From NCBI GenBank assembly GCA_963734545.1, contig CAVTHO010000009.1:64001-128000 (forward strand): a DNA stretch of 64,000 nucleotides, written 5' to 3'. Positions 1,758 to 63,117 of the stretch are shown piece by piece (within the stretch, counting starts at the first letter, position 1; every line of letters begins with the position of its first letter). The notes beneath the pieces were generated by a model. It was given only the letters and a program-made list of their open reading frames with translations, was not told where the DNA came from and made no database searches. The translations under genes and the position numbers were made by a program. The DNA is from an uncultured Spirochaetota bacterium (GTDB lineage Bacteria > Spirochaetota > Spirochaetia > SZUA-6 > Fen-1364).

Positions 1758-2640
1758 AAGCTTTCGCACGATCGAGTCCCTCCCGGCCGCATCCTGGCCT
1801 CCGCCGAGACGAAGAAGAAAGAGAAACTCCCTGTTGCCTTTTCTGCCGCGAAGGGGGGACTCCATCGCGTCCTCCACTCCCACACCTTCGTCCGACAGCC
1901 CTGCAATGAGATCCGTGAGAATATCGCGAAGCGCGCCCTTTCCCTGCACGACCCCCCTGAAGTCCCGGGGCGGGCGCCTGTATTCGAACTGCGGCTTGAC
2001 CAGGAAAATTCCGCGTCTCGCCGCGGTGAGCCCCAATATATGCGCTGCTGCCTGGCGGATCGAGCGGAAAGACAGATCTGCCGCCGCGCTGTCGGGAACA
2101 GGATCAAGGTCAAGAGCCCGCACCGTCATGACGTTCGTGGATTCCATCACGCGCACTCTCAGGTCGGCGCGCAGCCGCCAGTCGAGCTGGTTTTCTCCGA
2201 CATCGATTGCGTACACCAGGGATGCGCCGCGGCGCAGCAGGCAATCGGTGAATCCGCCTGTGGAGCTGCCCGGCATCGATCCAGGTCGTTCCCGCGCAGG
2301 CGATTGCCCACAGGTCGAGGCCCGCCGCGAGCTTCTCCCCGCCGCGGGACACGTAGGGCGGCTTCTCGCGGACGCTGATCGCCGCGTCGGCGTGGACAAG
2401 AGTTCCCGGTTTCACGACCTTCTCTCCCCCCACCAGGACTTCCCCGCGGAGGATCTCCGCGAAAAGCTCCTTCTCGTCACGCGACGGGTAGATGGTCTTG
2501 AGCAGGTCGATGAGGCGGACCCTTCGGCGCGGTCCTCCGTGCATTTCTTCTCGGCGCGGTCCTCCGTGCATTTCTTCTCGGCGCGGTACCCCGCGCATTT
2601 CTTCTCGGCGCGGTACGGCGTGCTCGTTGCGCGGTCTCAC
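1746..2640 (-). CDS. tlyA: TlyA family rRNA (cytidine-2'-O)-methyltransferase; indel near 2270; start uncertain (GTG 2640 or ATG 2598/2571/2544)
   Basis: S4-like RLIDLL, YVSRGGEKL, GSSTGGFTDCLL, DLSFRS, LVKPQFE and SPLRGRKGNREF, split across two frames. Confidence 0.9.
2524..2631. repeat. 4 x 27-bp tandem array of hairpin module D
   Basis: Units tcggcgcggt(c/a)c(t/c)ccg(t/c)gcatttcttc at 2524, 2551, 2578 and a degenerate one at 2605. Confidence 0.95.
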
Positions 2641-2641
2641 G

Positions 2642-3451
2642 TCACACCGAGGACATTTGACGCACCCTCTCGATGCGCACCGCCTTGCCGCTCGCGGCAT
2701 CGATCTCGATCAGCACGCCCTGGATCTCCCCGATGGAGTTCTGCACTTCCATCTTGAGAGGCATCTGGGTGAGGCTGCGCGCGATGGCGGTTTCCTTTTT
2801 CATGCCGATAACACTGTCGACGGGACCCGTCATGCCGATGTCGGTGATGTACGCCGTCCCGCCGGAGAGGATCCGCTCATCCGCGGTCTGCACGTGCGTG
2901 TGGGTTCCGATGACCGCGGAGACTTCGCCGTTGAGGAACAGACCGAGGGCCTCTTTCTCCTCCACTGCTTCCGCGTGGAAATCGACGATCACCGCGTTCA
3001 CTTTGCTGCGGAACTGCTTCAGCAGAGCCTTGCCCACGTGCAGGGGATCCCGCAGAGGAGACAGGTTGACCCGTCCTTCGAGATTGATCACGAGGACGGC
3101 AGCGTCCCGCACGTTCACGATGCAGTGACCCTTGCCGGGAATTGCCCCGGCGCCCTGGATGATCGGATAGTTCTCGGGCCGCAGCAGCGTGTCGTTCGTG
3201 GACAGGAGCGGGAGGATCTCCCGCTTCTGCCAGATGTGGTTTCCCGATGTGATGACGTGCACGCCTGACTTGAACATGCGCTCGGCGATTTCCGGCGTCA
3301 GGCCGAAGCCGTCAGCGGCATTTTCCCCGTTGGCAATGACGAGGTCCGCCCCTACGCGGCGTATCATGTCCGGCAGCCCGATGAAAAGGGCCCTGCATCC
3401 CGGCTGTCCCACGACATCACCCAGGATGAGGGCCTTGATGGCGCGCGTCAC
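2642..3451 (-). CDS. ymdB: TIGR00282/YmdB family metallophosphoesterase
   Basis: GDVVG, ANGENAA, TSGNHIW, DFHAEA, GTHTHVQTADERIL and TDIGMTGP motifs; directly downstream of rny. Confidence 0.93.
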   Translation of the reverse strand: MTRAIKALILGDVVGQPGCRALFIGLPDMIRRVGADLVIANGENAADGFGLTPEIAERMFKSGVHVITSGNHIWQKREILPLLSTNDTLLRPENYPIIQGAGAIPGKGHCIVNVRDAAVLVINLEGRVNLSPLRDPLHVGKALLKQFRSKVNAVIVDFHAEAVEEKEALGLFLNGEVSAVIGTHTHVQTADERILSGGTAYITDIGMTGPVDSVIGMKKETAIARSLTQMPLKMEVQNSIGEIQGVLIEIDAASGKAVRIERVRQMSSV

Positions 3452-3484
3452 TTTGCGCGCGCCCTAGCCCGCACCGCCCGAAGG

Positions 3485-3601
3485 GCGTAGCCAGGGATGG
3501 CGAGGTCGGCCGAGGCCATGGATGGCCGAAAGGCCGACGCGGTATCCGTAGGGCGGCAGGCGCGCAGGGCGCGCAACTCCGCAAGGAGCGGAAGGGAGCC
3601 C
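3485..3601 (+). repeat. Composite REP-like element (modules B+C)
   Basis: GTAGCCAGGGATGGCGAG...AGGGCGGCAG...GGGAGCCC. The same module order occurs inverted at 62920-63020. Confidence 0.75.
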
Positions 3602-3648
3602 ACGCGCCGGGCCTAAATGTCTCTTGCGTGCCATCGCCCTACACGATC

Positions 3649-5238: not shown

Positions 5239-5279
5239 GGACGCCCTGTCGTCCGTCCCCGGACTGGGCGTCCCTCGAC

Positions 5280-5318
5280 ATCCGTAGGGCGGCAGGCGCG
5301 CATGCACGCCGGGAGCCC
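5280..5318 (+). repeat. Module C repeat
   Basis: 23 nt identical to 3544-3566, then GGGAGCCC. Confidence 0.75.
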
Positions 5319-5385
5319 CTGTCTATGGGGTAACGGTTTGCCGTTTTTTTTATTGCCCCTTTTATAGCACTATGAGCGTAACAAT

Positions 5386-8300
5386 TCAACGAACGACAAG
5401 CTTTGCCAGTATCTGGCTTATCACGATCTCGGTTTCGCCCGCAAACCCCAGCAAAAGGTATGCTTCCTGACCTCTGAAGTTTGCCGGGAAGAGCAGCACC
5501 CGCTTCATATATCTCAGGTCATCAGGGTCGATTTTTACCCTGAGGAATGCGACATCAGCCGAGTTCTTGTTCACAGCGAAATATTTCCTGGGCGCGAAAA
5601 GGGACTTGAACGCGGGCTCCCCGGCGCTGAAAGCCAGGGTCCGCACCGTTCTTTCGCTCATCCCGACCGTCAGATCCAGTGCGTAGGTCTGCACTTTCTT
5701 GATGAACAGACCTGCGCTGACTGCCGAAACCCGGCGTGATAATTCAACGAGCGTCTTCATCTGCGTGGTGTGGGTAAAGGAGCGGGGATAGGACGAGAGA
5801 AACTCGTCGTAGTCCAGCCCGTTCCGCTTCAACCGTATCGGGCTTGCGGTCTCCGCCTGCGCGGGAGGGGCCTCTTCGGCAGCCGCCTGATCCCGCAGAA
5901 AATCATCAGAGAGATCGAGGGTATCCTCGGCGCTGATCAGGTCTCCTATGCCGCTCAATCCCGATTCCGCCTCGGCGGGCTGTCCGCCGGAGACTTCACT
6001 CAGCTCTCCCTCCATCTCGTGCTTGACGACTTCCTCCACGATCTGGCGCAGCTTCTCGTCATCGCGATTCTCGCTCGGCTTGTTTCCCGCCGTGTACACT
6101 TCTTCCTTGATACGGAAGAGACCGTCCTCCATGACGATGGCCGACTTGCCCTCTTCCAGAAAGCGCTGAAGCTCCTCCACCGTCCAGATCTTGATCGCGC
6201 CGGAGGCAAGAAGAGCATCAAGGGCCTGCGGGGTGTCGGCTGCCGATGGAACGACCGCGACCTCCTCGACGCTCTCCACCGCTTCTTCTTCAACGCTCTC
6301 CAGCTCTTCGAAATCCACGACTTCTTCGAATGCCAGCTCCGCCGGTTCAACGGGCGTGGGTCTTCCCCGTTCGGGCTCCACCAGGTCCTCGGCCTCCACG
6401 AGCACTTCCGGCTGAATCAGCGGCTCGGGCGGGGGTGCTTCGATCCGCGCGCGCTCTTCGTATTCCTCCGGCTCCACCGTGCGCGATTCAAGGGCCTCGA
6501 TGCGGCCCGATGCCATCGATCCATGCCCATGCGAATCATCGTGCCGCTCTTCGTCGACGACGGGAAGCAGCTCGAGTCCCTCCTCGACGGGCTCCGGGGG
6601 GAGCGGACGGACTTCCGGCAGAGGCTCCAGCTCTTCCAGCAATTCGCCCGACGTGTCGATGGCCTCCGCTTCGAGCGCGAGTGCGAGATCAGAGAACATA
6701 TCGACCGCTTCGCCGGGAACTCGTATCTCGACAAAATCGGTAACGGCGCCGCCCTTCTTCCTGGCCTCGGGTTTCTGGGGAGCTGAAACCGCGGCGACCT
6801 CCGCCTCGTCCTCCATCGGCTCGAGTTCCGCCGGCTCCTCCTCCAGCCCCTCGGGAACTGCCTGCGGCGGGGACAGCCTGCCGGAAGCATCCGACGCAGC
6901 TCCGGTCACGCTCCGCGCTTCGGCCGCGACACCCTCCGGCTCGGGCAGCGCTTCAGCCGGCTCGGCGGGTTCAGCTTCCGCAGTTTCCGCATCTTCGACC
7001 GTCTCGACTTCTTCGATGGTCTCATACTCTTCGACCGCGGCTGCTTCTTCGACAGGCGCGGCTTCTTCGGCCTCTTCGACCGCGGCAGCTTCTTCGACCG
7101 TTTCAGCTTCCTCGACTGCCTCGGCCTCTTCGACTACCTCGGCTTCTTCGACCGTCTCAGCCTCATCAATTGTTTCGACTTCCTCGACTGCCTCGGCCTC
7201 TTCGACCACCTCGGCTTCATCAATTGTTTCGGCTTCCTGGACTTCCTCGATCTCTTCCACCGCTTCAGCTTCTTCGACTTCTTCGGCCGCCGCGGATTGG
7301 CTGACCGCCGCGGGCGCCGGTTTGGCCCGTCTGGCCCCGGGCTCCGCGCTTTCGCTGACTTCCTCCGCCCTGATCTCCTCGACCTGCAGGGCGCGAGCGG
7401 GGGACACTTTCTGTTCGGGCAGAATGAAGTTCGCATTCTTGAGGGCTGCCTGGATCAACGACTCGAGGCGCGAAATGTCGATTGCTCCCGCCGCAGCAGC
7501 GGCAGGAGCTTCGGCGCGCCGGGACACCAGGTCGAGGATTTCGGACCAGCTCTTGGAAAGGTACTCGTCGATTATCGGCTTCTGTTTCTTCGACACGCGG
7601 CCGATTCCGCGCTGGATCTGCCAGGTGATCTCGTCCTTGCGCGACTCCATCTCACCTCGCCATTTGTTCCAGTCCGCGCCCCCGGGGCTTTCCACGAGCT
7701 CGGTGATCAACTGGATCTGGAAGCGCTTCACGCGCTGGCGCAGCACGTCGAGTGGATCGGTCCTGAGATTGAATATCAGATACAGGAAAAGGAAAACAGT
7801 GAGAAAAAACGTCGCGAGCAGCAGACCCTTCATGAGGTCCGCCATCTCGAAAAGCGAGCTCGGTTCCACGAGGCCGGCCATCCCGCCCGCGGCCAGGCGC
7901 TGGGAGAAGACGCGATAGGCGGCCTGCGGCCCGCCCTGGCTCGAAAGGGTAAGCGGCGCGGTAAATGAGGATGATCCGGGATTGCTGTTCCAGATCGCAA
8001 CGAGGTCATCCTCCACCGCCTTCGAGCCGGCGGGGTCGAAATTGATGAGGACGCCGGCACTTCCGACGAGCGCGACCTTCTCCACAGGAACGCCGGGGGT
8101 AACCGTCAATTCGCTGAGAAGCTTCTGCTGGGAAACGTAGAAAAGAAGCGTGCCGAACTGAGGGGGAGAATTCGCCTTTGCCGGCGCCTGCGCCGGCAGC
8201 GCGTAGACGAACCAGCCGTGCGGTCCGTCGATCAGGACCTTCGGCTTCTGATCCGGCGCGGCCGGAAACGCCGTCACGGGAATCGAGGTGTTGTCCTCGT

Positions 8301-8715
8301 TGTAATTCCGGTAGGAGACGCCTCCGGTGAGCTGCTGCTTGACGTCCATGTCGAGGAAGCTGCTGTAGAGTATCCGCTTGGCGTCCGCGCCGAGCAGCCT
8401 GACGCCGAAGAACCCGATCTGGCTCTTGGCGTCCGCCCACGCCTTGAGCGTGGGATCCGACAGGCGCAGGTCGAACGAGGCGGCGATGAAGTCCTTCTTT
8501 GCCGCGTTGGAGAATATCTCGAGATTTGCCTGGTGAAACCGGTCTATGCGGGAAACGAGCCGATCGAGATTGTCCTGATAGACCTGCTCGATCCTCGGCA
8601 GGAAGAAGCTCGTCTGAAGGACGTCGAAAAGCCCTGAGAAGCCGAGCACGGCGAAGCCGGCGAAGAGGAGAAGCGACGCGAGGAGACTGATTGCAATCTT
8701 GAGGCTCTGTCGCAT
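5386..8715 (-). CDS. Large two-TM membrane protein with extracytoplasmic domain, Glu-rich disordered region and C-terminal globular domain; function unknown
   Basis: About 1100-aa ORF with two hydrophobic segments and an (A/V)EE-rich repeat region; codon usage like its neighbours. Confidence 0.8.
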   Translation of the reverse strand: MRQSLKIAISLLASLLLFAGFAVLGFSGLFDVLQTSFFLPRIEQVYQDNLDRLVSRIDRFHQANLEIFSNAAKKDFIAASFDLRLSDPTLKAWADAKSQIGFFGVRLLGADAKRILYSSFLDMDVKQQLTGGVSYRNYNEDNTSIPVTAFPAAPDQKPKVLIDGPHGWFVYALPAQAPAKANSPPQFGTLLFYVSQQKLLSELTVTPGVPVEKVALVGSAGVLINFDPAGSKAVEDDLVAIWNSNPGSSSFTAPLTLSSQGGPQAAYRVFSQRLAAGGMAGLVEPSSLFEMADLMKGLLLATFFLTVFLFLYLIFNLRTDPLDVLRQRVKRFQIQLITELVESPGGADWNKWRGEMESRKDEITWQIQRGIGRVSKKQKPIIDEYLSKSWSEILDLVSRRAEAPAAAAAGAIDISRLESLIQAALKNANFILPEQKVSPARALQVEEIRAEEVSESAEPGARRAKPAPAAVSQSAAAEEVEEAEAVEEIEEVQEAETIDEAEVVEEAEAVEEVETIDEAETVEEAEVVEEAEAVEEAETVEEAAAVEEAEEAAPVEEAAAVEEYETIEEVETVEDAETAEAEPAEPAEALPEPEGVAAEARSVTGAASDASGRLSPPQAVPEGLEEEPAELEPMEDEAEVAAVSAPQKPEARKKGGAVTDFVEIRVPGEAVDMFSDLALALEAEAIDTSGELLEELEPLPEVRPLPPEPVEEGLELLPVVDEERHDDSHGHGSMASGRIEALESRTVEPEEYEERARIEAPPPEPLIQPEVLVEAEDLVEPERGRPTPVEPAELAFEEVVDFEELESVEEEAVESVEEVAVVPSAADTPQALDALLASGAIKIWTVEELQRFLEEGKSAIVMEDGLFRIKEEVYTAGNKPSENRDDEKLRQIVEEVVKHEMEGELSEVSGGQPAEAESGLSGIGDLISAEDTLDLSDDFLRDQAAAEEAPPAQAETASPIRLKRNGLDYDEFLSSYPRSFTHTTQMKTLVELSRRVSAVSAGLFIKKVQTYALDLTVGMSERTVRTLAFSAGEPAFKSLFAPRKYFAVNKNSADVAFLRVKIDPDDLRYMKRVLLFPANFRGQEAYLLLGFAGETEIVISQILAKLVVR
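6990..7285 (-). repeat. Degenerate 18-bp coding tandem repeat (EAEAVE-like hexapeptide)
   Basis: AEAVEE/AETVEE/AEVVEE/AETIDE units repeat through this interval. Confidence 0.85.
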
Positions 8716-8839
8716 GAGAAAACGATGTACCTTCTCACCCAAATATCGGCGTGAAAGGCCCTGCGGCCGAGGCTATTTTCCACTGCCGGACAGGCCGCAG
8801 CTCACGCCCGGCACGGGTGCACGCCCCTGCGCTCAGCTC

Positions 8840-11051: not shown

Positions 11052-11435
11052 CTACACGCGCCGCTTTTTCGGAGGCCGGCACCCGTTGTGCGGGATCGGG
11101 GTGATGTCCTTGATGGAGCGCACCCTGATGCCCAGGACTCCGAAAGCACGAATGGCCGCCTCGCTGCCGACGCCGGGCCCCCTCACGAAAACAACCAGCT
11201 CGTGCAGCCCCTGCTCCATCGCCTTGCTGGCCGCGGACTCCGCCGTCGTCTGGGCGGCGAACGGCGTCGATTTCTTGGCTCCCTTGAACCCGAGGGCCCC
11301 CGCGGAAGCCCAGGATATCGTGTTCCCCATGAGATCGGTGATGGTCACGATGGTATTGTTGAAGGTGGCCTGAATGAATGCCTTGCCTTCCGCTATATTC
11401 TTCTTTTTGTCTTTCTTGCCCTTGGTCTTTGCCAA
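11052..11435 (-). CDS. rpsK: 30S ribosomal protein S11 (TTG start)
   Basis: [20 protein letters not shown] and [15 protein letters not shown]; GGAGG SD before TTG. Confidence 0.97.
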
Positions 11436-11479: not shown

Positions 11480-11560
11480 GACGCGCGGTACGGCGTACTC
11501 GCCGAGCGGGTACACACGCACTCCGCGCATTTGCCCGACGCGCGGTGCACCCCGCGCGCG
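11480..11560. repeat. Intergenic mosaic of truncated module A plus module D hairpins
   Basis: gcgcggtacggcgtactcgccgagcgggtac...actccgcgcattt...gcgcggtgcaccccgcgc. Confidence 0.7.
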
Positions 11561-11566: not shown

Positions 11567-11935
11567 CTACTTCTTCCTCTTCCCTGCCACCGTCTTGCGC
11601 TTGCCCTTGCGGGTGCGCGCGTTCGTCTTTGTCCGCTGGCCGCGCACAGGCAGCCCCCTGCGGTGACGGATTCCCCGATAGCATCCAATGTCCATGAGCC
11701 GCTTGATGTTGAGCGAGACCTCCGTGCGCAGACGCCCTTCCACTCGGAAATCACTCTCGATCACGGTCCGCAGCTTGTTCACTTCGTCAGCCGTAAGATC
11801 GTTGATGCGCTTTTCCGGATCGACACCGGTGGTCGCGCAGATCTTCCGTGCCGACGTGCCGCCGATCCCGAAAATGTAGGTCAGGGCGACGTCCACATGT
11901 TTGTTGGGAAGATCTACGCCCGCAATACGTGCCAT
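11567..11935 (-). CDS. rpsM: 30S ribosomal protein S13
   Basis: [10 protein letters not shown] and [18 protein letters not shown]. Confidence 0.98.
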
Positions 11936-14157: not shown

Positions 14158-14667
14158 TCATCCCCACATGTCCTTCAGCGTTCTGCCCCGGTGCGCGGCG
14201 ATCTCCCGCGGGTCCATGAGCGAGTCCAACCCCTGGAAAACGGCCTTCACCGTGTTGATCGCGTTCGATGAGCCGAGTGACTTGGACAGGACGTCGTGTA
14301 TTCCCGCCGCCTCCATGACGGCGCGCACGGGGCCGCCGGCAATGACGCCGGTTCCCGGCGCCGCGGGCTTCAGGAGCACCTGGGCGCTCTTGAACTTGCC
14401 GAGGACCTGGTGCGGAAGCGTCGTCTTCTTGATGGGAACACGCACCATGCTCCTCTTGGCCTTCTCGATGCTCTTGCGAATGGCATCCGCGACGTCATTC
14501 GCCTTTCCGAACCCGTAGCCCACGCGGCCGGCGCGGTCACCCACTACGGTCAGCGCGGAGAAAGAAAAACGTCGACCGCCCTTGACGACCTTCGCGACCC
14601 GGTTAAGCTTGACGAGTTTCTCGAGAAACTCGCCCTGGTTCCTGTCCCTGTCCTGATCCATTGCCAC
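14158..14667 (-). CDS. rpsE: 30S ribosomal protein S5
   Basis: [15 protein letters not shown] and [12 protein letters not shown]. Confidence 0.98.
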
Positions 14668-14686: not shown

Positions 14687-14734
14687 CGAACGGGTACGGC
14701 CTTCGGGCCGAGCGCGTACTCGCGCACTCCCGTT
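14687..14734. repeat. Module A repeat (branched double hairpin)
   Basis: 14690-14733 matches 24760-24803 at 42 of 44 nt; further copies at 27901-27960 and inverted at 62841-62900. Confidence 0.9.
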
Positions 14735-14749: not shown

Positions 14750-15109
14750 CTATAAGCTGATGCCGGCCTTGCGTGCGCCGTCCGCAATCGCCTTTATCTT
14801 GCCGTGATAGCGGTAGCCGTTCCTGTCGAAGACGACCGCCGCGATGTTCTTGGCCTTGAGCCTCTCCCCGATGAGCAGCCCGAGCTTCTCCATTTCCGCG
14901 ACCTTGTTGGCGATGCTCCGATGCTCCTTCTCCAGATTCGAGGCGGTGGCCAGCGTGGCTCCCGCGGCATCGTCGATGGCCTGCACGTAGGTGTAGCGGT
15001 TCGACTTGTACACGGTGAGCCGGGGCCGCTCGGGAGTGCCCTGGATCTTCTTGCGGATGCTCGCCTTTCTCTTCAGACGCTTGCGCGACTTGTCGATGAT
15101 CTTCTTCAC
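14750..15109 (-). CDS. rplR: 50S ribosomal protein L18
   Basis: GTPERPRLTVYKS and VVFDRNGYRYHG. Confidence 0.98.
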   Translation of the reverse strand: MKKIIDKSRKRLKRKASIRKKIQGTPERPRLTVYKSNRYTYVQAIDDAAGATLATASNLEKEHRSIANKVAEMEKLGLLIGERLKAKNIAAVVFDRNGYRYHGKIKAIADGARKAGISL

Positions 15110-17865: not shown

Positions 17866-18156
17866 CTACTTCGCTTTCTCGACTATCTCGACAAGCCGCC
17901 AGCGCTTGTCCTTGCTCAGCGGCCGGGATTCCACCACGCGCACCGTGTCCCCGATCCCGCACTCGTTCTTCTCGTCATGCGCCTTGATCTTCTTTGTCCT
18001 CGTCAGGTATTTCTTGTACAGCCGATGGAGCTTGCGTTGATGGATCTCGACGACGATCGTCTTCTGCATCTTGTTGCTCACGACGCGGCCCTGGAGGACC
18101 TTCTGGACCGGCACGGTATTCCGTGCATTATTTGTCTTCTTTGTCACTTCTTCCAC
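17866..18156 (-). CDS. rpsQ: 30S ribosomal protein S17
   Basis: [19 protein letters not shown] and [12 protein letters not shown]. Confidence 0.97.
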
Positions 18157-22904: not shown

Positions 22905-22918
22905 TCCTGCAGCCTCAC

Positions 22919-22993
22919 TGCGACGCGGTACGCCGCGTCATTCGTTGCGACGCGGTACGCCGCGTCATTCGTTGCGACGCGATACGCCGCGTC
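22919..22993. repeat. ~3 x 27-bp tandem array of module D (rpsJ-rplC spacer)
   Basis: tgcgacgcggtacgccgcgtcattcgt x2 plus a partial third copy. Confidence 0.95.
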
Positions 22994-22995
22994 GC

Positions 22996-43857: not shown

Positions 43858-45158
43858 TGCCCCCCTCCCCCGGGCATGGCCAGGACCCTGAAGTAGCGCG
43901 ACTCGGGATAGATCCCGTCCGAAGATACTATCTTGGCAAGGGCCGCGCGCACCTGCGCCTCCTCGGCCTCGTCCACGAGCATGAACAGATCCGAGGGTTT
44001 GGTCTTGTCCTCCCATTTCTGGTGCACGCTCTCGATATTGATGGCGTTCTCCGCGCAGATGCGGGTGACGAGGGCCCAGATGCCGGGCCTGTTTGCGGTG
44101 ACGAAATGAAAATAGCACTTGTTCACCATGCGTGCGGCGGGGAACGGTTGCATGCAGGCAAGTGCGGGAAGAGGAGCCCGCGGCACCTGCCGGGAGAGGA
44201 TGGTCTTCAGCACGTCCCCCAGGTCCGATGCCAGTGAAGAGGCGGTGGGGCTCCCGCCGGCCCCTTTTCCCTCATAGACCGATGCGCCGAGGAAATCGGA
44301 GTCCACGAGCACTCCGTTGAACTCGTCACGGACGCCGGCAAGGGGATGGTCCAGCGGCACCAGCGCCGGGTAGACGGTGACCAGCGGCGCCCCTTCCATC
44401 ATGCGGGCCTGCGCAACGAGCTTGAACACGAACCCGCTGGAAAGGCAGAACTCGATGTCCTTCTGCGTCACGCCGGCAATTCCTTCGCACAGGATGTCGC
44501 GCGGCTCGATCCAGCAGTCGAACGCGAGGCTGGCGAGAAGCCCGATCTTCTGCGCGGCGTCGCCGCCGCTCACGTCGAGCGTCGGGTCCGCCTCGGCAAA
44601 CCCCTTTTGCTGGGCCTGCGCAAGGGCGTCGGCAAAGGAAAGTTTCTCCTCGGTCATGCGCGTGAGAATATAGTTGGTGGTTCCATTGACGATGCCGACG
44701 ATGCTTCTCACCCGGTTTCCCATGAGGCTCTCGCGCAGGACCTTGATGATCGGTATGCCGCCGCACACGGCGGCCTCGAACTTCAGCTCCACGCCGCGCG
44801 CGCCGGCGAGCGCAAGGAGCTCCCGTCCGTGCGCGGAGAGAAGCGCCTTGTTCGCCGTGATCACGTGCTTGCCGCGGTTCAGCGCCTCGCGGACCAACGG
44901 GAGGGGTGCATCCGCCCCGCCGGTGAGCTCCACGACGATAGGCACGGAAGGGTCATCCAGGATTTCGTTCCATCCGCTCACCACGCGGGTGCCCGGTCCC
45001 ACGCGGCGCTTCCGGGAGGCGTCCCGGACGCCGACCCAGGGAACTTCGATCGTCACCCCCAGCCGCCGCCCGAACTCGGCCGCGTTGCGCGTCAGCAGGT
45101 TGTAGAAGCTCTCCCCCACCGTGCCGAAGCCGACGAGACCGATTCTTACTCTGTCCAT
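43854..45158 (-). CDS. hom: Homoserine dehydrogenase with C-terminal ACT domain
   Basis: GFGTVG, TANKAL, FEAAVCGGIP, NGTTNYIL, AEADPTLDV and GAGG.PTAS. Confidence 0.95.
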   Translation of the reverse strand: MDRVRIGLVGFGTVGESFYNLLTRNAAEFGRRLGVTIEVPWVGVRDASRKRRVGPGTRVVSGWNEILDDPSVPIVVELTGGADAPLPLVREALNRGKHVITANKALLSAHGRELLALAGARGVELKFEAAVCGGIPIIKVLRESLMGNRVRSIVGIVNGTTNYILTRMTEEKLSFADALAQAQQKGFAEADPTLDVSGGDAAQKIGLLASLAFDCWIEPRDILCEGIAGVTQKDIEFCLSSGFVFKLVAQARMMEGAPLVTVYPALVPLDHPLAGVRDEFNGVLVDSDFLGASVYEGKGAGGSPTASSLASDLGDVLKTILSRQVPRAPLPALACMQPFPAARMVNKCYFHFVTANRPGIWALVTRICAENAINIESVHQKWEDKTKPSDLFMLVDEAEEAQVRAALAKIVSSDGIYPESRYFRVLAMPGGGGQ

Positions 45159-48100: not shown

Positions 48101-48562
48101 GTCCGGCTGGCCATTCAGGATCGCGGCAGGGATGTCGCCGGCAAGGCAGGCGCTGAGGGCGATGAGCCCTTCGTGGTGCTGCTCGAGGAGCTCGTCGTCG
48201 ATGCGGGGCTTGTAGTAGAAGCCTTCCGTGTACCCCAGGGAGCTGAGCGCGAGAAGGTTCTCGTACCCTTTCAGGTTGCGGGCGAGAAGCACGAGGTGAT
48301 GATGCCGCGTGCCCTTCTCACTGCCCGACTTTTCGCGGCGTGACCGGGGCGCCTTGTAGCATTCGGAGCCGATGATGGGCGCGACGCCCCCCTTCCTGCA
48401 TTCCTTGTAAAACGCGAGTGATCCGAACATGTTGCCATGGTCGGTCAGCGCAAGATGAGACATGCCCAGGTGTTTCGCGCGGGCCACCAGGGCTTCTATG
48501 GAGGAAGCGCCGTCAAGGAGAGAGAAATCCGAATGGCAATGCAGGTGCACGAACGGTGTCAC
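45146..48562 (-). CDS. dnaE: DNA polymerase III alpha subunit
   Basis: HLHCHSDFSLLDG, GRGSGAGS, MPDFDIDF, KMDFLGL and YGFNKSHAAAY; no intein visible. Confidence 0.98.
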   Translation of the reverse strand: MTPFVHLHCHSDFSLLDGASSIEALVARAKHLGMSHLALTDHGNMFGSLAFYKECRKGGVAPIIGSECYKAPRSRREKSGSEKGTRHHHLVLLARNLKGYENLLALSSLGYTEGFYYKPRIDDELLEQHHEGLIALSACLAGDIPAAILNGQPDEARTRALYYRELFGPDGFYLELQDHGIPEQALVNKELVKLSRETGIPLVATNDVHYTAREDARAQDVLICIGTGKKVSEGKRMKFEHPEFYFKSGDEMANVFAELPEAIANTVAIAESCTLEIPSLSPQFPVYVVPAGTTPEGYLTDLARKGLAERFDPVPPETAKRLEYELSIITSMGFTGYFLIVWDFIHYAKENGIAVGPGRGSGAGSLVAYSLKITDIDPLKYGLLFERFLNPERVSMPDFDIDFCHRRRDEVISYVTRKYGEDKVGQIITFGTLKARAVIRDVARVLDLPYDEADAIAKLVPEGPKIDLDTALKENPKLEEVANRGPQYKELIEISLKLEGLHRHASTHAAGIVVGREPLVRYVPLYRDPKTGLVSTQYTMDFLEECGLVKMDFLGLKTLTVIEDALALVRKKGVAIELKSIPEDDPATFRMFCEGKSTGAFQFESSGMQGVLKKARPGKIEDLIALNALYRPGAMDHIDTFVENKSGRKRIEYPLPELESVLKETYGVPVYQEQVMEMAQVVAGFTLGQADILRRAMGKKKPEEMLKMKEKFLTGSKANGYDAATSERIFELLFAFSGYGFNKSHAAAYTIPAYHTIWLKANHPAEFIAANCTNEMSDTDRMAQLIHEAREMGIEVLPPDVNLSQKDFTVEKGKIVFGLLGIKNVGAGAVDAIIGEREKNGPFAGFLDFFNRIDSHEVNRKVAESLVITGAFDRLGETRATLLHNMAKVMELCAKQREAARYGQVSLFEGAADAPAAAMDLERQPELPAAKLLESEKENLGFFFSGHPLDAWRELIARTVTVDLSAKESLSNERACNLVGILSELREIRTRNGRTMAFARLEDYRGSIELIIFSDVYDARRALIANDSIVGVRGKIDTTRGEAKVKVEDIMAPGALPQKPAQAVHVRLNEEVGTEESLHKIREFLLDRRGGCSLFFHLGSGNGREIVVEASSQIRVAHAEEVLAGLREYPQVADVWTE

Positions 48563-48680
48563 GCGACGCGGGCCCCCTCCCTAGGCATGGACGCCGAGGG
48601 CGCGCGAGTGCAGGGATGTACTTTAGCGCGCCAGCCCCGACATGATAACCGTGCGCGCACTCCGTGTAAAGAGAACCCGT

Positions 48681-48696
48681 GCACGGTATCCCGTGC
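48681..48696. repeat. Single module D hairpin just past the aminotransferase stop
   Basis: gcacgg-tatc-ccgtgc. Confidence 0.75.
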
Positions 48697-48697: not shown

Positions 48698-49885
48698 TCA
48701 CCGGCGGCAGGCTTCTCCGACTTCCACGACCGCGCGGATGACCCGTGCGACCTCCTGGTCGGTGAGCGAGGCGCTCAGGGGAAGGCTGATGCAGGAGCGA
48801 AAGCACCGCAGCGCGGAGGGGAAGTCATCCGGCTTCAGGGAATACTTGTCCCGATAGTAGGACATGAGGTGCAGGGGAATGAAATGGACCGAGACGCCTA
48901 TTCCCCGCTTCACGAGCTCCTCGATGAAGCCGTCCCTGTCGATGGACAGCTTTGCTTCCCTGATTCTGATGATGAAAAGGTGCCAGGCGTGGTTGTCCGA
49001 CCGGGGAGGCACCTGCAGGAAATCGAGGCCCCCGAATGCCGCCAGGTATTTCAACGCAACGGCGCGGCGCTGCAGAAGAAGGGTTTCCGCCTTCTGGAGC
49101 TGCACCCTTCCGATGGCGGCGGCGAGATCCGTGAGATTGTACTTGTAGCCCGGTGCCACGACATCGTACCTCCACGTGGCCCCCGGATCCGTGTACCGCT
49201 TCCAGACGTCCCTGTCGATCCCGTGCAGGCGCATGACGCGGATGCGCCGCGCCAGCTCATCCCTGTCGGTGACGACCATTCCCCCTTCTCCCGTGGTGAT
49301 GGTTTTGGTTGCATAGAAGGAGAAGACCCCTGCATCGCCCAGCGTGCCCAGAAACCGGTTTCCCATGCGCACGGGGAACGCGTGTGCGGCGTCTTCCACC
49401 ACCGGTACGCCGTAGGTGACGGAGAGACGGCCAATGGCCTCCATGTCGCAGGGCAGTCCGGCCAGATGCACGGGAATGATGGCGGACACCCGCCGCCCCG
49501 CCCGTGCCATCCGGTCCAGCGTCTCCTCCAGGCGGGAGACGTCGATGTTCAGCGTGGCGGGGTCGATGTCGACAAAGACGGGATCCGCGCCGAGATAACG
49601 AACGACCTCGGCCGTTGCCGCGAAAGTGAACGGCGTGGTGAGCACGACGCTGCCCGGGCTCACGCCGAGTGATTCGAGGGCCAGGTGCAGACCGGCGGTG
49701 GCGGAATTGAGGGCAATCGCGTGCCGGGAGCCCGCGTATGCGGCGAACTCCGATTCGAACCGCGCCGCCACGTCGCCCGTCGTGAGCCACCCGGACCGCA
49801 TCACGGCAAGGACGGCATCCTCCTCCTCCTTGCCAAGGGACGGACGGGAGAAGGGAACAAATGGGGCGGACGGAACTTCACTCAC
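48698..49885 (-). CDS. DegT/DnrJ/EryC1/StrS PLP-dependent sugar aminotransferase
   Basis: SGWLTTG, NSATAGLHL, VEDAAHA and FSFYATKTITTGEGGM. Confidence 0.94.
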   Translation of the reverse strand: MSEVPSAPFVPFSRPSLGKEEEDAVLAVMRSGWLTTGDVAARFESEFAAYAGSRHAIALNSATAGLHLALESLGVSPGSVVLTTPFTFAATAEVVRYLGADPVFVDIDPATLNIDVSRLEETLDRMARAGRRVSAIIPVHLAGLPCDMEAIGRLSVTYGVPVVEDAAHAFPVRMGNRFLGTLGDAGVFSFYATKTITTGEGGMVVTDRDELARRIRVMRLHGIDRDVWKRYTDPGATWRYDVVAPGYKYNLTDLAAAIGRVQLQKAETLLLQRRAVALKYLAAFGGLDFLQVPPRSDNHAWHLFIIRIREAKLSIDRDGFIEELVKRGIGVSVHFIPLHLMSYYRDKYSLKPDDFPSALRCFRSCISLPLSASLTDQEVARVIRAVVEVGEACRR

Positions 49886-49899
49886 CGTGCTTCCCTGGC

Positions 49900-49917
49900 G
49901 GCGCGGCACTCCGCGCC
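49900..49917. repeat. Single module D hairpin between the two sugar genes
   Basis: ggcgcgg-cact-ccgcgcc. Confidence 0.75.
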
Positions 49918-52745: not shown

Positions 52746-54146
52746 ATGAAGAGATGGATCGGGCTTTCCCTGCTCCTCGTGCCTCTCCTCGTGTCCGCCG
52801 CGGGCTTCTGGGACGGGAACGCCGCCCTGCAGAGGGGCGATGCTGCCTTCGAGAGCGGCCTGTACGCCGCATCCAACTCGTTCCCGAAAGACACGCGCAT
52901 CCTCATCGAAAACCTCGACACAGGAAAGACAGCCACAGCGACAATCACGGATCGGATCGAAGGGCGGTCCGACATCCTTGTTCTGCTGTCGCCGAAAACA
53001 GCCGAAGCGCTCGGCATTCCGCAGGGGACGCTTGCCAGCGTACGGGTGACGGTCACGTCCTCCCCGAGCGCCGTGACTGCGCAGCCTTCTGAGCGGGCCT
53101 ACAGCCCCGACCCGGATCTCAATCCCGCGGCAGCGTATCCCGCCGATGAAAGGGCTCGTTCGGCAGACACGAGCACCGCTTCGATGGAGAGCCTGCCTGC
53201 CCCGCAGGCGCCGGCTGCTCCCGCGCAGGCGCCGACCACGCTCGCCGAGGCGCCGCTGCCAGTCGGCACTGAGAGCCCCCCGGCCGAGAAGCCGCCGGAC
53301 CAGCAGGTCGCGGATCAGAAGGCAACGGATCAGAAGACGGCAGACCAGAAGGCGGCGGACCAAAAGGCAGCGGAACAGAAAGCGGCGGACCAGCAGGCTG
53401 ACGAGGCGATCATCGCCGCGGCAGCCGCGCGCACGCCACAAAAGCAGCTCTTCCTTCCCCCGCGGGAGGACGAGAAGTTCGTCTATCACAAGCCTGTCGA
53501 AACCACTGCAACGCAGACGGTCCAGGCTACCGCGGCGGAAACCCAGCCGCGCATCACCTCGGTCATCGGTGAGCCTGCTGCCGCGCCTGCCCCTGCCGGC
53601 ACGGGTGATATGCCGCTTGCCGAGGCCACGGCCCCGGAGGAATCTCGCGCGCAGGAGATCGTCAGCGCGGGGCCCGCGACCCCCCCCATGGGAACCGGCG
53701 GGGAATCCGCGGCTCTCGCCGCGCCCGAGCTGCTGACGGAAGGGCAGCCGGCTGTTGCGCAGGAGCCGGTGCAGACAGAGGTGAGCAGCCCCGTCGTGAC
53801 CCCGTCGACGGCGCAGGAAGCGCCGAAGCTCGCCCTCGTCGCCCCCGAGGCGCCGTCAGCCGTGCAGGCAGCGGTTGCTCCTGTGGTCAAGGCCGCGACC
53901 ATCCCCCGGATCGCAAAGACTGAAACATACTATCTCCAGCTCGGTGCCTACGCCTCGGAAAAGGTGGCGCAGGACCTTGCGGCGAGCCTCCCCTCGACGT
54001 ACCCCACGCTGGTTGTCGCGCCCGCGGGCGCGGGAACGGGGATGTTCAGGGTCCTGATAGGACCGCTCAACCGGGCCGAGAGCGGTACCGTGCTCACCCG
54101 ATTCCGCTACCGCGGATTCCCGGATGCGTTCCTGAAGCAGGAGTAG
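52746..54146 (+). CDS. SPOR domain protein (signal peptide, RlpA-like N-terminal domain, low-complexity linker)
   Basis: C-terminal YYLQLGAY...FRVLIGPL...GFPDAFLK; N-terminal AASNSFP.DT.I.IENL.TGK. Confidence 0.85.
   Translation: MKRWIGLSLLLVPLLVSAAGFWDGNAALQRGDAAFESGLYAASNSFPKDTRILIENLDTGKTATATITDRIEGRSDILVLLSPKTAEALGIPQGTLASVRVTVTSSPSAVTAQPSERAYSPDPDLNPAAAYPADERARSADTSTASMESLPAPQAPAAPAQAPTTLAEAPLPVGTESPPAEKPPDQQVADQKATDQKTADQKAADQKAAEQKAADQQADEAIIAAAAARTPQKQLFLPPREDEKFVYHKPVETTATQTVQATAAETQPRITSVIGEPAAAPAPAGTGDMPLAEATAPEESRAQEIVSAGPATPPMGTGGESAALAAPELLTEGQPAVAQEPVQTEVSSPVVTPSTAQEAPKLALVAPEAPSAVQAAVAPVVKAATIPRIAKTETYYLQLGAYASEKVAQDLAASLPSTYPTLVVAPAGAGTGMFRVLIGPLNRAESGTVLTRFRYRGFPDAFLKQE
53298..53402 (+). 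repeat. 7 x 15-bp coding tandem repeat (DQKAA-like)
   Basis: DQQVA DQKAT DQKTA DQKAA DQKAA EQKAA DQQAD. Confidence 0.9.
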
Positions 54147-54154: not shown

Positions 54155-54203
54155 CCGCCCGCACGGCACTCCGTGCAATTTCTCCGCCCGCACGGTACTC
54201 CGA
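54155..54203. repeat. 2 x 29-bp module D array upstream of ligA
   Basis: ccgcccgcacgg(c/t)actccg repeated at 54155 and 54184. Confidence 0.85.
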
Positions 54204-57504: not shown

Positions 57505-57517
57505 ACGGGTTTTGATC

Positions 57518-60217: not shown

Positions 60218-61093
60218 TGGACTTCTCATTTGTCACCTTCTTCCTGGTCAAGGGGCTGGAGATCTCCTCCCCCATCGCCTTTGCCGCTCTGGGCGGCGTC
60301 TTTTCGGAGCGCGGCGGAGTGGTCAACATCGCCCTGGAAGGGATCATGACCGTGACCGCCCTCACGCTCGTCTGGGGCGCCATCACGTTCCACAGCATCT
60401 GGATGGGGCTGCTCGTCGCCGTGATCTCCGGCATGCTCATGGGGCTCATCCACGCGCTGGTCACCGTGACGTTCAAGGTGGACCACGTGGTGAGCGGCGT
60501 GGCGATCAACATCTTTGCCATCGGCCTTACGCGGTTCCTCAGCCAGAGCTGGTTCGGCCAGGAGACGCAGTCCGCAATCAACTCCCGGCTTTTCCCGAGC
60601 TGGCTGGGCATCAATTCGCTGGCCTTCTGGCTGATCCCGCTAACGGCGCGTTGCCTGGTTCGCCATCAACCGCACGGTCTTCGGGCTGCGGCTGCGCAGC
60701 GTGGGGGAAAACCCCGAAGCCGCCGACACGCTGGGCGTCAACGTCTACTTCATGCGCTACGCGGGCGTGATCATCTGCGGCGCGCTGTGCGGCCTCGGCT
60801 CGGCCACCCTGTTTGCCGACAAGTGGATCAGCGGCATGGTGGCGGGACGCGGCTTCATCGCGCTGGCGGCCGTGATATTCGGCCGATGGAATCCGATCGG
60901 AGCGGTGCTCGCCTCGCTGCTCTTCGGCTACGCGGACACCGTCAGGATCGTGTTCGAGACCCGGATCCCCATCCCGGTCCAGTTCGTGCAGATGTTCCCG
61001 TACATTCTGGCACTCGTGGTGCTGGCAGGGCTTGCCGGCCGCGCCCGCGCGCCTGCCGCGGACGGAAGGGCGTTCGAGAAGGGCGAGGGGTAG
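60217..61093 (+). CDS. ABC transporter permease 2; apparent indel near 60650
   Basis: SERGGVVNIALEG; second frame GENPEAADTLGV and GRGFIALAA. Confidence 0.92.
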
Positions 61094-61239
61094 AGCACGC
61101 GGCCGAAGGCCGCGTGCTAAAGGGGCCCCAGGGCGGCAGCCGGCTGCGGAGCAGACGGCGGGAGCCCTGGGGGGAGCACCCTTGCCGAAGGCCGCGTGCG
61201 AGAGGGGGGGCGCCCTTGGGAAGGCCGCGTGCGAGAGGG
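61090..61239. repeat. REP-like GTAG hairpin, module C and a 20-bp direct repeat between convergent genes
   Basis: GTAG-AGCACGCGGCC-GAA-GGCCGCGTGCT; module C at 61130-61167; gaaggccgcgtgcgagaggg at 61187 and 61220. Confidence 0.8.
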
Positions 61240-61246
61240 CCGAGTA

Positions 61247-62777
61247 TCAGCCCTGTCTCCTGCGTTCGATTCCGTGCCAGGGCGCGCCTGCGCGCCGCTT
61301 CCTCCTGTTTCGCTGCGTCCGCATGATTCGATTGATGCCGGGCACCTCCTCGAAGAACAGAGGCAGAAGGAAGGGCCTTTCTTCTTCCCGCAGGCCGCCG
61401 GTGACCCTGATCCTGGGTATCAGGGCGAACGTGGTGACGAGCCTGAGAATGAACGAGGCGACAAAAAGGAGAGGAAAAGCGCTCACCGCGAGACCGAGAA
61501 CGGTGATCGAACGCTCCCCCATGAGATTGAGGAAACCCCCCGGCAATGAGCGATGCCAGGCCGCCGGCAATGCTTCCCACCATCGTCGAGACAGCCATGT
61601 ACATTCCGCTTTCTTCGGGAGAAGGAAAACGGGTCACGAGCTTCACCCCCGCATTGGTCGCCGCCGGGGGGAAAATGCCCCCGATGAGGCCGGCGAGACC
61701 GACCCAGAGGATGGCGGTGCGCGGAGTCGCGAACAGCCAGATTGCGGGAATCAGGCACCAGAAAGAATAGCCGATGAGGAGAACCCGCTTGACGCCGATC
61801 CTGTCGACCATTCTGCCGACGGTTCGGGCAGCCAGAAAGGTCCCCACCAGGGCGGTCGCGCTTACCGCGAACATTCCTCCGAGGAGATCATTCTTGAATT
61901 GGAGATTCTCCATGAAGTAAAGGACGCAGAGCGCTCCCCCCAGGCCCATGCTCAGGTTCCAGCTTGCCGTGAAGAGCAGCCAGGGGCGGAAACTCTTGTC
62001 CCGCAGGGGCACGAGCATGCCGCTCAAGGATCCGCCGGAGGGCTTTCCTTCGAGCGGCGGCTCGGGGATGGTGCCGTGGATGAAGATGTCGACCAGACCG
62101 AGAACGCTGGCCGCGGCGAGAATCGCGGCGGCAATTTCGAGCTTTCCGCCCGGGGGAATCAGATCCATCAACAGACCGGAAGGGAGGATCACTGCGATCA
62201 CGACGAGTGAAATCCAGCTGTCTCTCCTTCCCCAGAATGTGCCCTGCACCTCCCGGGGAATAATTGTCGTCAGCCAGCCGAACCATGGTCCCGGAGAGAG
62301 GTTGCCGATGAGCGTGGCGACGCAGATTCCCAGCATGAAGACGAGGTACGCGGCGGGATGACCGGCTCTCCAGAGCAGGAAGGCGACAGTGATCCCTACG
62401 AGCCGCAGGACCCTGTCCGTGAGAGCTGTCCAGAACCAGACGAGCTTGCGCGACCCGGCCCTTTCCCCGAGCATTGCCCCCAGCGGCTGAACCACCACGA
62501 CCCAGGCAGCGAGCGCGCCGAGGACCCCCCACTGGAATTGCGTCATTCCGATTGCGTTGCCGAAGTAGACGTAAATGATGCCGGTGATGACCGCACCCCA
62601 GGCGGAGCCGAGAGTGCCGGTGAAGATGTGCTTTCTCATCAGGGACGGCAGCTCGCCGGTCTGCACAGGCCTGCGAAGAAAGTATTTCACTCGGCTCTTT
62701 GGCGCCGAAGCAATGGGCGGAACCGAATGGCGCGGAATACCGCGCCGAGATGGCGGGAAGCTCTGCTGGCTCATCAT
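61247..62777 (-). CDS. MFS transporter; apparent indel near 61538; start uncertain
   Basis: Many TM helices and MFS motif A GRMVDRIGVKR. Confidence 0.88.
62729..62746. repeat. Module D hairpin (inverted orientation) in the 5' end of the MFS ORF
   Basis: Minus strand ggcgcgg-tatt-ccgcgcc, encoding RRGIPR. Confidence 0.7.
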
Positions 62778-62840
62778 TTTCCCAGTTCAACCAATGAGAA
62801 TTGATCTCTCAACCGATGATTGTCAATACAACTCGCGGTT

Positions 62841-63117
62841 GCGGGAGTGCGCGAGTACGCCCTCGGCCCGAAGGCGGTACCCGTTCGGCGAGTACGCCGT
62901 CTGCGGGGCCTCCTTTCGCAGGCTCTCGCCGTCTGCTACGCAGACGGCTGCCGCCCTTCGCACGCCTTCAGCGTGCTACGCATCCCTGTGCTCGTCGGCC
63001 CTCGCCCTCCGTGGCTACGGCCCCTTGAAACGGACCGCTGTTTTCCGCTATCCTCCCGATCGCTTTTCCAACTCTGCGCGGTACCCCGCGCGTTCATTGC
63101 TGCGCGGTATGCCGCGC
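62841..63117. repeat. BIME-like mosaic containing modules A, C, B and D
   Basis: A at 62841-62900, C at 62920-62957, B at 62981-63020, D twice at 63076 and 63102. Confidence 0.88.

Follow-up and report, generated by a model that had tools for sequence, protein, structure and literature searches.

Module D, a lineage-specific family of small hairpin repeats with direct arrays and nested copies in a wetland spirochaete genus

Module D in the window and in the genome

The window analysed here, 64,000 nt in length, spans positions 64,001 to 128,000 of contig CAVTHO010000009.1 (C9 below) in the genome of an uncultured spirochaete (assembly GCA_963734545.1, hereafter G000; 5.14 Mb, 62% G+C, 10 contigs, completeness 89%). 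Positions 1-39000 of the window carry, on the minus strand, the str, S10 and spc ribosomal operons, with open reading frames (ORFs) of rpoB and rpoC size, fusA, tuf, rpsJ, rplC, rplD, rplW, rplB and the gene for S17. Dispersed through these operons and beyond them is a hairpin repeat, module D, which consists of a 16-nt hairpin (6-bp stem SCRCSG, loop TAYN) followed by a 3-nt tail ATT; its genome consensus is G-CCRCGG-TAYT-CCGYGG-ATTT. The repeat is confirmed as real and as more than a product of chance. Some copies and arrays postdate the split of G000 from relatives 89-91% identical to it, and module D persists at orthologous sites across species, with changing copy number and with stems that differ on both sides.

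An initial annotation of the window, made from the sequence alone, had reported about 25 copies; every site it cited holds the motif, and about 26 copies were counted here. Copies count as perfect if all 6 bp of the stem are Watson-Crick pairs and the 4-nt loop reads TAYN or its complement; these start at 2581, 18111, 21447, 21474, 22923, 22950, 23322, 23347, 24659, 24700, 48681, 62730 (opposite strand), 63076 and 63102. Arrays were delimited by Tandem Repeats Finder at 2524-2614 (period 27, 3.4 copies), 21417-21495 (27, 2.9), 22919-22993 (27, 2.8) and 23318-23368 (25, 2.0). The copies and their surroundings are as follows.

2524-2631, plus strand: array of three 27-nt units and a truncated fourth, with a perfect GCGCGG-TACC-CCGCGC at 2581-2596, loop TCCT with G.T pairs at 2527 and 2554, and a half unit at 2608; spacer between ymdB (2642-3451, minus) and a gene for an FtsJ-like methyltransferase (1746-2399, minus), as identified by Pfam
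11483-11560, plus strand: D hairpin GCGCGG...CCGCGC with a 30-nt double-hairpin insert after loop TA (11483-11531), then a variant hairpin with a longer loop at 11541; spacer between the minus-strand ORFs 11567-11935 and 11052-11435, probably rpsM and rpsK by size and operon position
16296 and 16329: imperfect D copies, in the orientation opposite to the perfect copies of the operon block
18111-18126, plus strand: single hairpin GCACGG-TATT-CCGTGC inside the S17 coding sequence, about 10 codons past the conserved GTG start at 18156
21418-21501, plus strand: insert in rplW (L23) of 84 nt, i.e., three 27-nt units and 3 nt, encoding 28 residues on the minus strand; the first unit (21420) has G.T pairs
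22914-23002, plus strand: array of three 27-nt units from the rpsJ stop to the rplC start, each unit holding the stop-codon context (AA)TGA on the coding strand; the copy at 22977 has one mismatch
23318-23368, plus strand: array of two units of 25 nt, GTCACGG-TACC-CCGTGAC, between tuf and rpsJ; the conserved rpsJ start ATGGCCAGGGAAAGG lies downstream of it, and the array is outside the protein
24659-24807, plus strand: fusA-tuf spacer, with a hairpin at 24659, a GCGCGG hairpin whose loop holds a nested GCACGG-TAAC-CCGTGC (24683-24727) and a composite at 24742-24807
39497-39512, plus strand: hairpin GCACGG-TACC-CCGCGC with 5 of 6 pairs, between two tRNA genes and upstream of ORF 39286-39462 (minus)
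48681-48696, plus strand: hairpin GCACGG-TATC-CCGTGC in the spacer between ORFs 45146-48562 and 48698-49909 (minus), adjoined by a module of the 27443 type (48582-48632)
49899-49916, plus strand: variant hairpin GGCGCGG-CACT-CCGCGCC between the stop of the upstream gene (49926) and the likely start of a DegT-type aminotransferase gene
54155-54203, plus strand: variant hairpin GCACGG-CACT-CCGTGC and a truncated second unit (54187), in the spacer between a SPOR-domain gene and ligA
62730-62745, minus strand: hairpin in opposite orientation (plus strand GCGCGG-AATA-CCGCGC) close to the 5' end of a long ORF on the minus strand that matches MFS weakly
63076-63117, plus strand: two hairpins 26 nt apart (GCGCGG-TACC-CCGCGC and GCGCGG-TATG-CCGCGC) in the 5' leader of bioY, not in the protein

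Genome-wide, module D was counted by pattern matching with other loops, other tails and reversed arms as controls. On its own the 10-nt core CGGTAYNCCG shows no enrichment (226 sites, where permuted loops give 31-237), though the hairpin as a whole stands far above its controls. Three extra Watson-Crick pairs were found in 207 of 412 CGG-N4-CCG cores with the loop TAYN/NRTA, compared with 160 of 5047 with other loops; perfect 6-bp hairpins account for 322 of 22,619 G-TANN-C sites (1.4%), against 0.18-0.23% in three control loop classes. When the stem was left unconstrained, N6-TAYN-N6-ATT was fully paired in 130 of 1150 cases, while seven other 3-nt tails gave 0-4 of 254-2869. Nine stem types occur among 89 independent loci; pairs 2, 4 and 6 are invariant, and pairs 1, 3 and 5 differ on both sides (CG 72/GC 16, GC 70/AT 19 and GC 71/CG 17, respectively). 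A seventh position is paired in just 50 of 185 copies, the level of chance. A start codon within the unit was considered and dropped: copies in the window are followed by CAT, which reads ATG on the coding strand, but this is not general, and across the genome the consensus tail is ATT after G.

A relaxed census yielded 464 hairpins at 357 loci, with 286 single copies and 71 head-to-tail arrays of 2-6 units at periods of 23-28 nt; the 60 directly neighbouring pairs at 24, 25, 26 and 27 nt are spread almost evenly (15, 14, 17 and 14). Among strict copies at most 300 nt apart, six pairs have opposite orientation versus about 80 direct ones. Units are near identical within one array, while stem and spacer differ between arrays. 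Of 320 strict copies, 184 fall outside genes according to rough gene calls that span 82-90% of each contig. Ribosomal operons are not specially enriched: at 14 strict copies the window exceeds the mean of about 3.7 per 64 kb, but another bin also holds 14, and counted by loci other 50-kb bins reach 12.

Turnover among relatives, nesting and entry into proteins

For comparison we used 20 genomes of the same genus (given G numbers below), 20 genomes of other genera in the order and a 400-genome sample of the phylum; like G000, several of the relatives compared for repeat load are incomplete. The tandem pattern gave 62 matches in G000, with 0-1 in controls, and was present in 15 of the 20 same-genus genomes (none in G006, G007, G008, G015 and G020). 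Outside the genus, it matched once in one of the 20 other-genus genomes, and one or two times each in three of the 400 phylum genomes.

Alignment of orthologous junctions revealed both empty and filled sites at rpsJ/rplC, in rplW, in S17 and in a histidine kinase gene. Between rpsJ and rplC, nine genomes have a spacer of 8-13 nt (TGAGGC...ATG), and nine, G000 included, hold between one and three units or a nested unit. A CAA last codon is common to the filled genomes, every unit repeats the (AA)TGA context, and the stems differ between lineages on both sides (GACGCGG/CCGCGTC versus GGCGCGG/CCGCGCC). Over 45 kb aligned between G000 and G014 at 87-89% identity, 28 indels of at least 9 nt were found, and 18 were judged to involve hairpins.

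Contigs of related strains, not of G000 itself, from four wetland metagenome runs carry shorter forms at three arrays: an X1 contig skips 57 nt in the rplW array, contigs of X3 and X4 skip 81 and 90 nt at rpsJ/rplC, and upstream of rpsJ there is one unit where G000 has two. None of these contigs spans a whole array of the G000 type, and the parts left uncovered are not counted as evidence. The initial annotation had described the family as recently active and as tolerated by the most conserved operons; the differences between G000 and its close relatives, the copy-number variants of the metagenomes and the copies within the S10, spc and str operons all bear this out.

An origin of the arrays in assembly or consensus errors of the metagenome-assembled genome is hardly credible. 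No metagenome run holds at least half of the sampled words of the stretch, so the G000 arrays are not checkable read by read, and one flaA gene looks frameshifted; against this, 15 of 20 independently assembled relatives carry the family, often at shared junctions, as do contigs of four independent metagenome runs, and arrays inside genes keep the reading frame. The flaA match (C7:717611-718355) changes frame near 717984-717994, where no hairpin repeat lies, and reflects either a pseudogene or an indel error of the assembly. FlaA, of the spirochaete flagellar sheath family, is encoded in G000 and fits the spirochaete phylum; the family matched 0 of 14 control genomes.

Other tandem repeats also occur in the window. 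In the minus-strand ORF 5386-8742 (1118 residues), positions 6949-7288 hold tandem coding repeats of 9, 18 and 54 nt that are unrelated to the hairpin family, and comparison with G014 shows four indels of 9-18 nt within them. A 15-nt tandem repeat of 7.5 copies lies at 53287-53398 within the SPOR-domain gene.

All perfect copies in the operon block of the window share one orientation, in which the mRNA would carry a hairpin with no U-rich tail after it; the copy of G014 at 15109 has the other orientation. Together with the rpsJ/rplC hairpins, which persist in eight relatives with stem differences on both sides, and with the roles that PMC2817692 and PMC3733652 describe for repetitive extragenic palindromes (REPs) elsewhere, the shared orientation speaks for a functional element selected by the host, such as an mRNA stabiliser or processing site, a binding site for a nucleoid or RNA-binding protein, or a weak terminator. 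We nevertheless regard such a function as quite unlikely. Genome-wide there is no preferred orientation to flanking genes (20 same versus 19 opposite in co-directional short spacers, with 46 convergent and 38 divergent loci), and neither local GC skew (84/80 against 69/60) nor skew and gene-strand switch on contig C7 showed a link to copy orientation, so a replication-strand bias and a replichore effect were both set aside. Close relatives have no copies at the same junctions and keep their operons intact, five same-genus genomes have no tandem matches, copy number varies freely and copies lie inside unrelated proteins. Searched against Rfam 15 at gathering score, the window matched only two tRNAs, and module D had no match. 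An intrinsic terminator was rejected as well, as the tail ATT(T/C) has no T run, copies are oriented at random relative to genes and 38 loci are found between divergent ones. Within called genes, antisense hairpins (104 loci) outnumber sense hairpins (58); spacers show no such bias.

Hairpins also lie within the loops of other hairpins. A 30-nt unit, C-GGCG TACT CGCC-GAA-CGGG TACT CCCG-TA, stands directly after the host loop TA in seven clean cases, including 11483; it is inverted in two of the seven and bounded by TA...TA in four, and two cases are doubly nested (about 60 nt). A second-level insert, GGCC TTC GGGCC-GAG-CGCG TACT CGCG, leads to a 60-nt composite at 14687, 24742, 27900, 62842 and loci elsewhere, and three different hosts contain a heterologous hairpin, CCTT-GCACGG-TAAC-CCGTGC-AGTT, as a nested copy. 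Interrupted or neighbouring hairpins with matching arms number 140, versus 2 in a reversed-arm control. The mosaics with other modules that the initial annotation had noticed are largely hairpins in hairpin loops, and the dispersed modules themselves were confirmed. Composite and dispersed modules of the window include the following.

14687-14733, plus strand: composite nested module CGGG-TAC-[GGCC TTCG GGCC]-GAG-[CGCG TACT CGCG]-CACT-CCCG with a three-way fold (z -2.7), in the spacer between ORFs 14750-15109 and 14158-14667 (minus)
27443-27501, plus strand: another dispersed module, complement TAGCCACGGAAGGCGAGGGCGAGCGAG..., in the rpsL-rpsG spacer, with 25 other loci, 23 of them intergenic
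27893-27959, plus strand: composite nested module upstream of rpsL, largely missing in G014
62842-63020, minus strand: composite nested module (62842-62901), then a mosaic of GTAG-containing modules (62906-63020)

Other dispersed GC-rich modules lie at 3483-3595, 5272-5323, 27443-27501, 48582-48632, 61083-61240 and 62906-63020, many of them with GTAG/CTAC. Each dispersed module, the nested composite included, recurs at 6-34 other, mostly intergenic, loci of the genome. Relative to G014, the module at 27443-27501 is a 52-nt insertion (27445-27496) with the flanks TATG...CTATG and the empty site CTACG. In relatives, a second tandem hairpin family, (TGA)AATGTCGC-CAGGA-GCGAC, was observed at operon junctions with TGA/ATG contexts, namely at L29/S17 of G019 and G017, at rplC/rplD of G001, G016 and G011 and at fusA/tuf of G017 and G018.

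Entry into protein N-termini and the creation of new peptide had also been proposed, and judged by sequence this appears to hold for L23, S17 and other proteins. In rplW, the 84 nt lie in frame after codon 2 in G000 only; they are absent in 15 of 15 relatives, with an exact gap against G014. The rplW genes of all 15 start ATGAC(N)(M)T(N)GA(R)AG(R)ATC, i.e., MT(L/I/M)ERIII, overlapping the rplD stop, and downstream of the insert no start codon occurs before the conserved core. The S17 start GGAG-N-GTG-GAA-GAA is conserved in six genomes. Units, where present, follow codon 9 or so and keep the frame in every case; G006 and G017 have none, G000 and G014 one, and G002 and G019 two. The Pfam domain of S17 begins at residue 23, and a GTG in the 3' arm of the hairpin could act as an alternative start in filled genomes. 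In a histidine kinase of G000, the HATPase_c domain contains four 24-nt units (NPRDTATP), placed between its N and G1 boxes; the orthologue of G014 has two units, and those of G002, G017 and G005 have none. Being nearly free of stop codons in all six frames, module D would be translated in L23, S17 and the histidine kinase as tandem peptides of 8 or 9 residues.

The proposal did not hold for rpsJ, bioY, the DegT aminotransferase and ORF 2110-2700, where N-terminal entry is an artefact of calling the longest ORF. The BioY domain begins at residue 151 of the longest ORF, and the likely start of bioY (GGAGG, then ATG near 63138) lies downstream of the hairpins at 63076-63117; the Pfam domain of the DegT gene starts at residue 36 of its longest ORF, and a GTG downstream of the hairpin at 49899-49916 is its likely start. 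ORF 2110-2700, which spans the array at 2524-2631, has no Pfam match. The claim that copies keep to spacers or the first 40 or so codons and avoid conserved protein cores stands for the window, where they lie in spacers and in the first 30 codons of L23 and S17, and fails once genome-wide, at the array inside the HATPase_c domain.

Inside called ORFs, the period of adjacent pairs is a multiple of three in 29 of 31 cases (deep inside 19/20, near the C-terminus 7/8, near the N-terminus 3/3), against 17 of 60 elsewhere (outside ORFs 13/39, at ORF edges 4/21); array periods inside ORFs are nearly always 24 or 27 nt. This bias is in part due to the definition of an ORF, and it fits selection against frame-breaking insertions. 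Pfam domains flank the array on both sides in 7 of 10 host ORFs (L044, L045, L047 and L050-L053). L044 (C7:117720-121370) is a single ORF in which an ABC permease is joined to a rhamnosidase through the array, and L047 (C4:201430-204096) a single ORF joining an ABC ATPase to a permease; each may be a gene fusion or the result of a stop codon lost at a repeat site.

Candidate routes of spread

Small palindromic repeats are known mainly from Proteobacteria, and the best-understood route of their spread is the REP-associated tyrosine transposase (RAYT). The initial annotation had suggested this mechanism, by comparison with REPs, bacterial interspersed mosaic elements (BIMEs) and REP doublets forming hairpins (REPINs), and had called for a search for Y1 transposases flanked by the same motifs. 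G000 has one match to PF01797 (Y1 transposase), at C4:159537-160019; it is IS200-type and low in G+C, and is flanked by its own end hairpins CCACCGCC-NNNN-GGCGGTGG, not by module D, with GTAG-containing modules just downstream. The eight Y1 copies whose flanks were read in eight same-genus genomes (one each) are IS200-type too, with ends unrelated to module D. Nor does the presence of Y1 track the repeats: G002 (53 tandem matches, 96% complete) and G010 (20 matches) have no Y1 hit, and G008 and G015, with no arrays, have four and two. The E. coli control genome gave a PF01797 match. E. coli K-12 carries a RAYT gene, and if the match is to that gene, RAYTs would be detectable in this way.

At 31 of 218 loci, for example C3:422154, C8:154858 and C7:243762, a TAG stands 4-5 nt 5' of the first hairpin; TGA and TAA hardly occur in that position. 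Twenty of the 31 loci form a tagged subfamily, cGTAGCCCTT-CCGCGG TAYN CCGCGG-AGTTGGATGGCGAG, in which the tag, (c)GTAG(C/G/A)CCTT, is unpaired; two of the twenty (C9 191712 and C5 518351) read ATAG or TTAG and not GTAG. In 10 of the other 11 loci the TAG is the stop codon of a co-oriented gene, as might result from a preferred target or from a stop that the element brings along. One array, at C7:243762, was aligned with G002 and G014; G002 has an inverted imperfect unit there and G014 half units, and the site has diverged too far to be informative.

A REP/BIME or REPIN family spread by a RAYT that is missing from the 89%-complete assembly, or was recently lost, would account for GC-rich hairpins that are high in copy number, mostly extragenic and species-specific, for the tagged subfamily and for the GTAG-containing modules, which are dispersed and in some cases lie beside the sole Y1 gene. 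We consider it decidedly unlikely, as the Y1 genes are IS200-type and do not follow the repeats, copies form direct tandem arrays in place of inverted or alternating pairs, and roughly 85% of loci have no GTAG-type tag; the suggested mechanism is not supported.

We favour the view that module D is a genus-restricted, REP-like, non-autonomous selfish hairpin family moved by an activity acting in trans, and we give it a probability of about 0.5. It is preferred because the tests for a RAYT failed, no IS630-, IS4- or IS5-type transposase was found and solo copies have no target duplication. The activity would recognise the CGG-TA-YN-CCG hairpin, make new copies and prefer a hairpin loop as target, and such loop targeting may produce both nesting and tandem growth. 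Arrays would then grow or shrink by slippage or unequal exchange, and selection would only filter: copies in spacers would survive in any orientation, and those inside genes would survive only as frame-keeping 24- or 27-nt units at tolerant sites such as N-termini, linkers and loops.

Several results weigh against this reading. Flanking direct repeats of at least 4 nt were found at 4 of 131 solo hairpins, and those are array remnants; the solo hairpins therefore lack a classical insertion signature. The clean insertions in rplW and at rpsJ/rplC share no obvious target, and the array spacers at both sites look like copies of the flank, which local duplication also explains. In G000 there was no match to DDE_3 or DDE_Tnp_1 (IS630-type and IS4/IS5-type), and the 25 genes flanked by inverted D copies include no paralogues by blastp and none that is transposase-like by its first 90 residues. 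Single-sequence folding energies are ordinary for this G+C (z -0.9 to -2.7), so the case for a hairpin rests on covariation between loci, and stem complementarity could be kept by template-switch correction of quasi-palindromes and not by selection or copying. An asymmetry of wobble pairs between strands was rejected: the excess of G.T over A.C in the loop-TAYN strand (29 versus 7 loci) rests on one subfamily, TCGCGG/CCGCGG (13 loci), and in the core set of CGG/CCG-closed hairpins 18 G.T versus 5 A.C become 5 versus 5 once it is removed. The assembly, too, is not perfect, given its 89% completeness and the frameshifted-looking flaA.

No dedicated enzyme would be needed if the hairpins arose and multiplied by slippage between short direct repeats and by template switching at quasi-palindromes, which would also keep the two arms complementary, with new sites reached through gene conversion or fragment capture during repair. 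This is consistent with the failure to find a transposase candidate, with solo copies that have no target duplication, with units that are near identical within arrays and different between them, and with array spacers that resemble the adjoining flank at rplW and rpsJ/rplC. At 15109, moreover, the insertion of G014 consists of the left arm and the loop, and a pre-existing CCGCTTC (G000) or CCGCTGC (G014) becomes the right arm. Random slippage, however, leaves unexplained the common TAYN loop, CGG/CCG closing and ATT tail at about 350 loci, the 30-nt unit and the heterologous hairpin in the loops of different hosts and in both orientations, and the confinement to part of one genus; we therefore hold it to be unlikely. 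Even if module D were satellite DNA driven only by slippage, it would be a hazard for annotation, as longest-ORF calls through arrays invent N-termini and gene fusions.

A more specific proposal, tentative and to our minds doubtful, is that of a self-targeting element with no RAYT, in which the TA of its own tetraloop is the preferred insertion site in an ongoing process that adds repeats of 8-9 residues to L23, S17 and a catalytic domain. With the tetraloop TA as preferred site, hairpins and the 28-30-nt double-hairpin unit would enter the loops of other copies in either orientation. If true, this would account for nested three-way structures and head-to-tail arrays alike, and would point to an enzyme not yet recognised or to enzyme-free, replication-based copying.

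Comparison with known repeat systems

Module D is a real, lineage-specific repeat system of the REP, Rickettsia palindromic element (RPE) and mycobacterial interspersed repetitive unit (MIRU) kind, with an unusual organisation and a driver that was not found. What sets it apart is a dense and recently dynamic family in a wetland spirochaete genus with no detectable RAYT, which combines direct arrays with loop-in-loop nesting. Empty, single and multi-unit states at the same sites provide a workable system for the movement of repeats that have no transposase. The predicted in-frame insertions into two ribosomal proteins and an ATPase domain, which appear natural and ongoing, suit studies of how essential proteins tolerate added peptide, and the arrays may serve as strain markers.

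For REPs and BIMEs with RAYT, the defining features were taken from part of Nunvar 2010 (PMC2817692). Module D resembles REPs, BIMEs and REPINs as a family of short GC-rich hairpins in more than 100 copies, mostly extragenic, specific to a species or genus, kept at orthologous sites and clustered. It differs in having no RAYT flanked by the repeats, a 6-bp stem, a hairpin of only 16 nt and mostly no GTAG; BIME and REPIN clusters are alternating or inverted pairs, whereas those of module D are head-to-tail direct arrays. Bertels and Rainey reportedly found in 2011 that REPINs are mobilised by RAYTs.

The initial annotation knew of no such family in Spirochaetota, which has to be qualified. Passages of Di Nocera et al. 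2013 (PMC3733652) list CGTC-tagged REPs in five phyla including Spirochaetes, and describe them as having stems of 8-9 bp that start with A/T pairs, a CCA tail, mainly head-to-head dimers with negligible head-to-tail ones, no dedicated transposase and intragenic units; by sequence, the same passages assign RPE-4 and RPE-6 to the CGTC type. Module D shares with the GTAG and CGTC superfamilies a stem-loop with an unpaired 3-nt tail, intragenic units and the lack of a dedicated transposase (CGTC); a subfamily of 20 loci carries a GTAG-type tag. Its 6-bp stem, which is all G/C at the loop end, its ATT tail and its predominance of head-to-tail arrays do not fit the CGTC family. Among the papers listed in literature searches on repetitive extragenic palindromes or RAYT in spirochaetes, none described the module D family.

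Judged as a miniature inverted-repeat transposable element, module D has solo hairpins with no duplication, a 30-nt unit bounded by TA...TA in 4 of 7 cases and no DDE_3 or DDE_Tnp_1 in G000. The MIRU-VNTR (variable number tandem repeat) elements are described in the review by Delihas 2011 (PMC3184786) as 40-100 bp long, present in about 40-50 copies per genome and flanked by tetranucleotide direct repeats at filled sites. Both systems place direct tandem units between cistrons, vary in copy number among strains and have ends that overlap or copy the stop or start context of the neighbouring genes, as in the rpsJ/rplC units with their (AA)TGA; module D differs in its units of 23-28 nt around one hairpin, its about 350 loci and its solo copies with no flanking direct repeat.

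Repeats fused in frame to genes are exemplified in passages of the same review (PMC3184786) by RPE, the Bordetella repetitive element (BRE) and pneumococcal BOX and RUP. Like these, module D is a palindromic repeat that survives in frame within genes, adds peptide and also occurs at the 5' and 3' ends of genes. The genes for L23, S17 and the HATPase_c protein each show RPE-like in-frame insertion by comparison with orthologues that lack the insert. RPEs are single elements and, at about 100-150 bp, much longer, whereas the units of module D measure 24 or 27 nt (8-9 residues) and are tandemly amplified.

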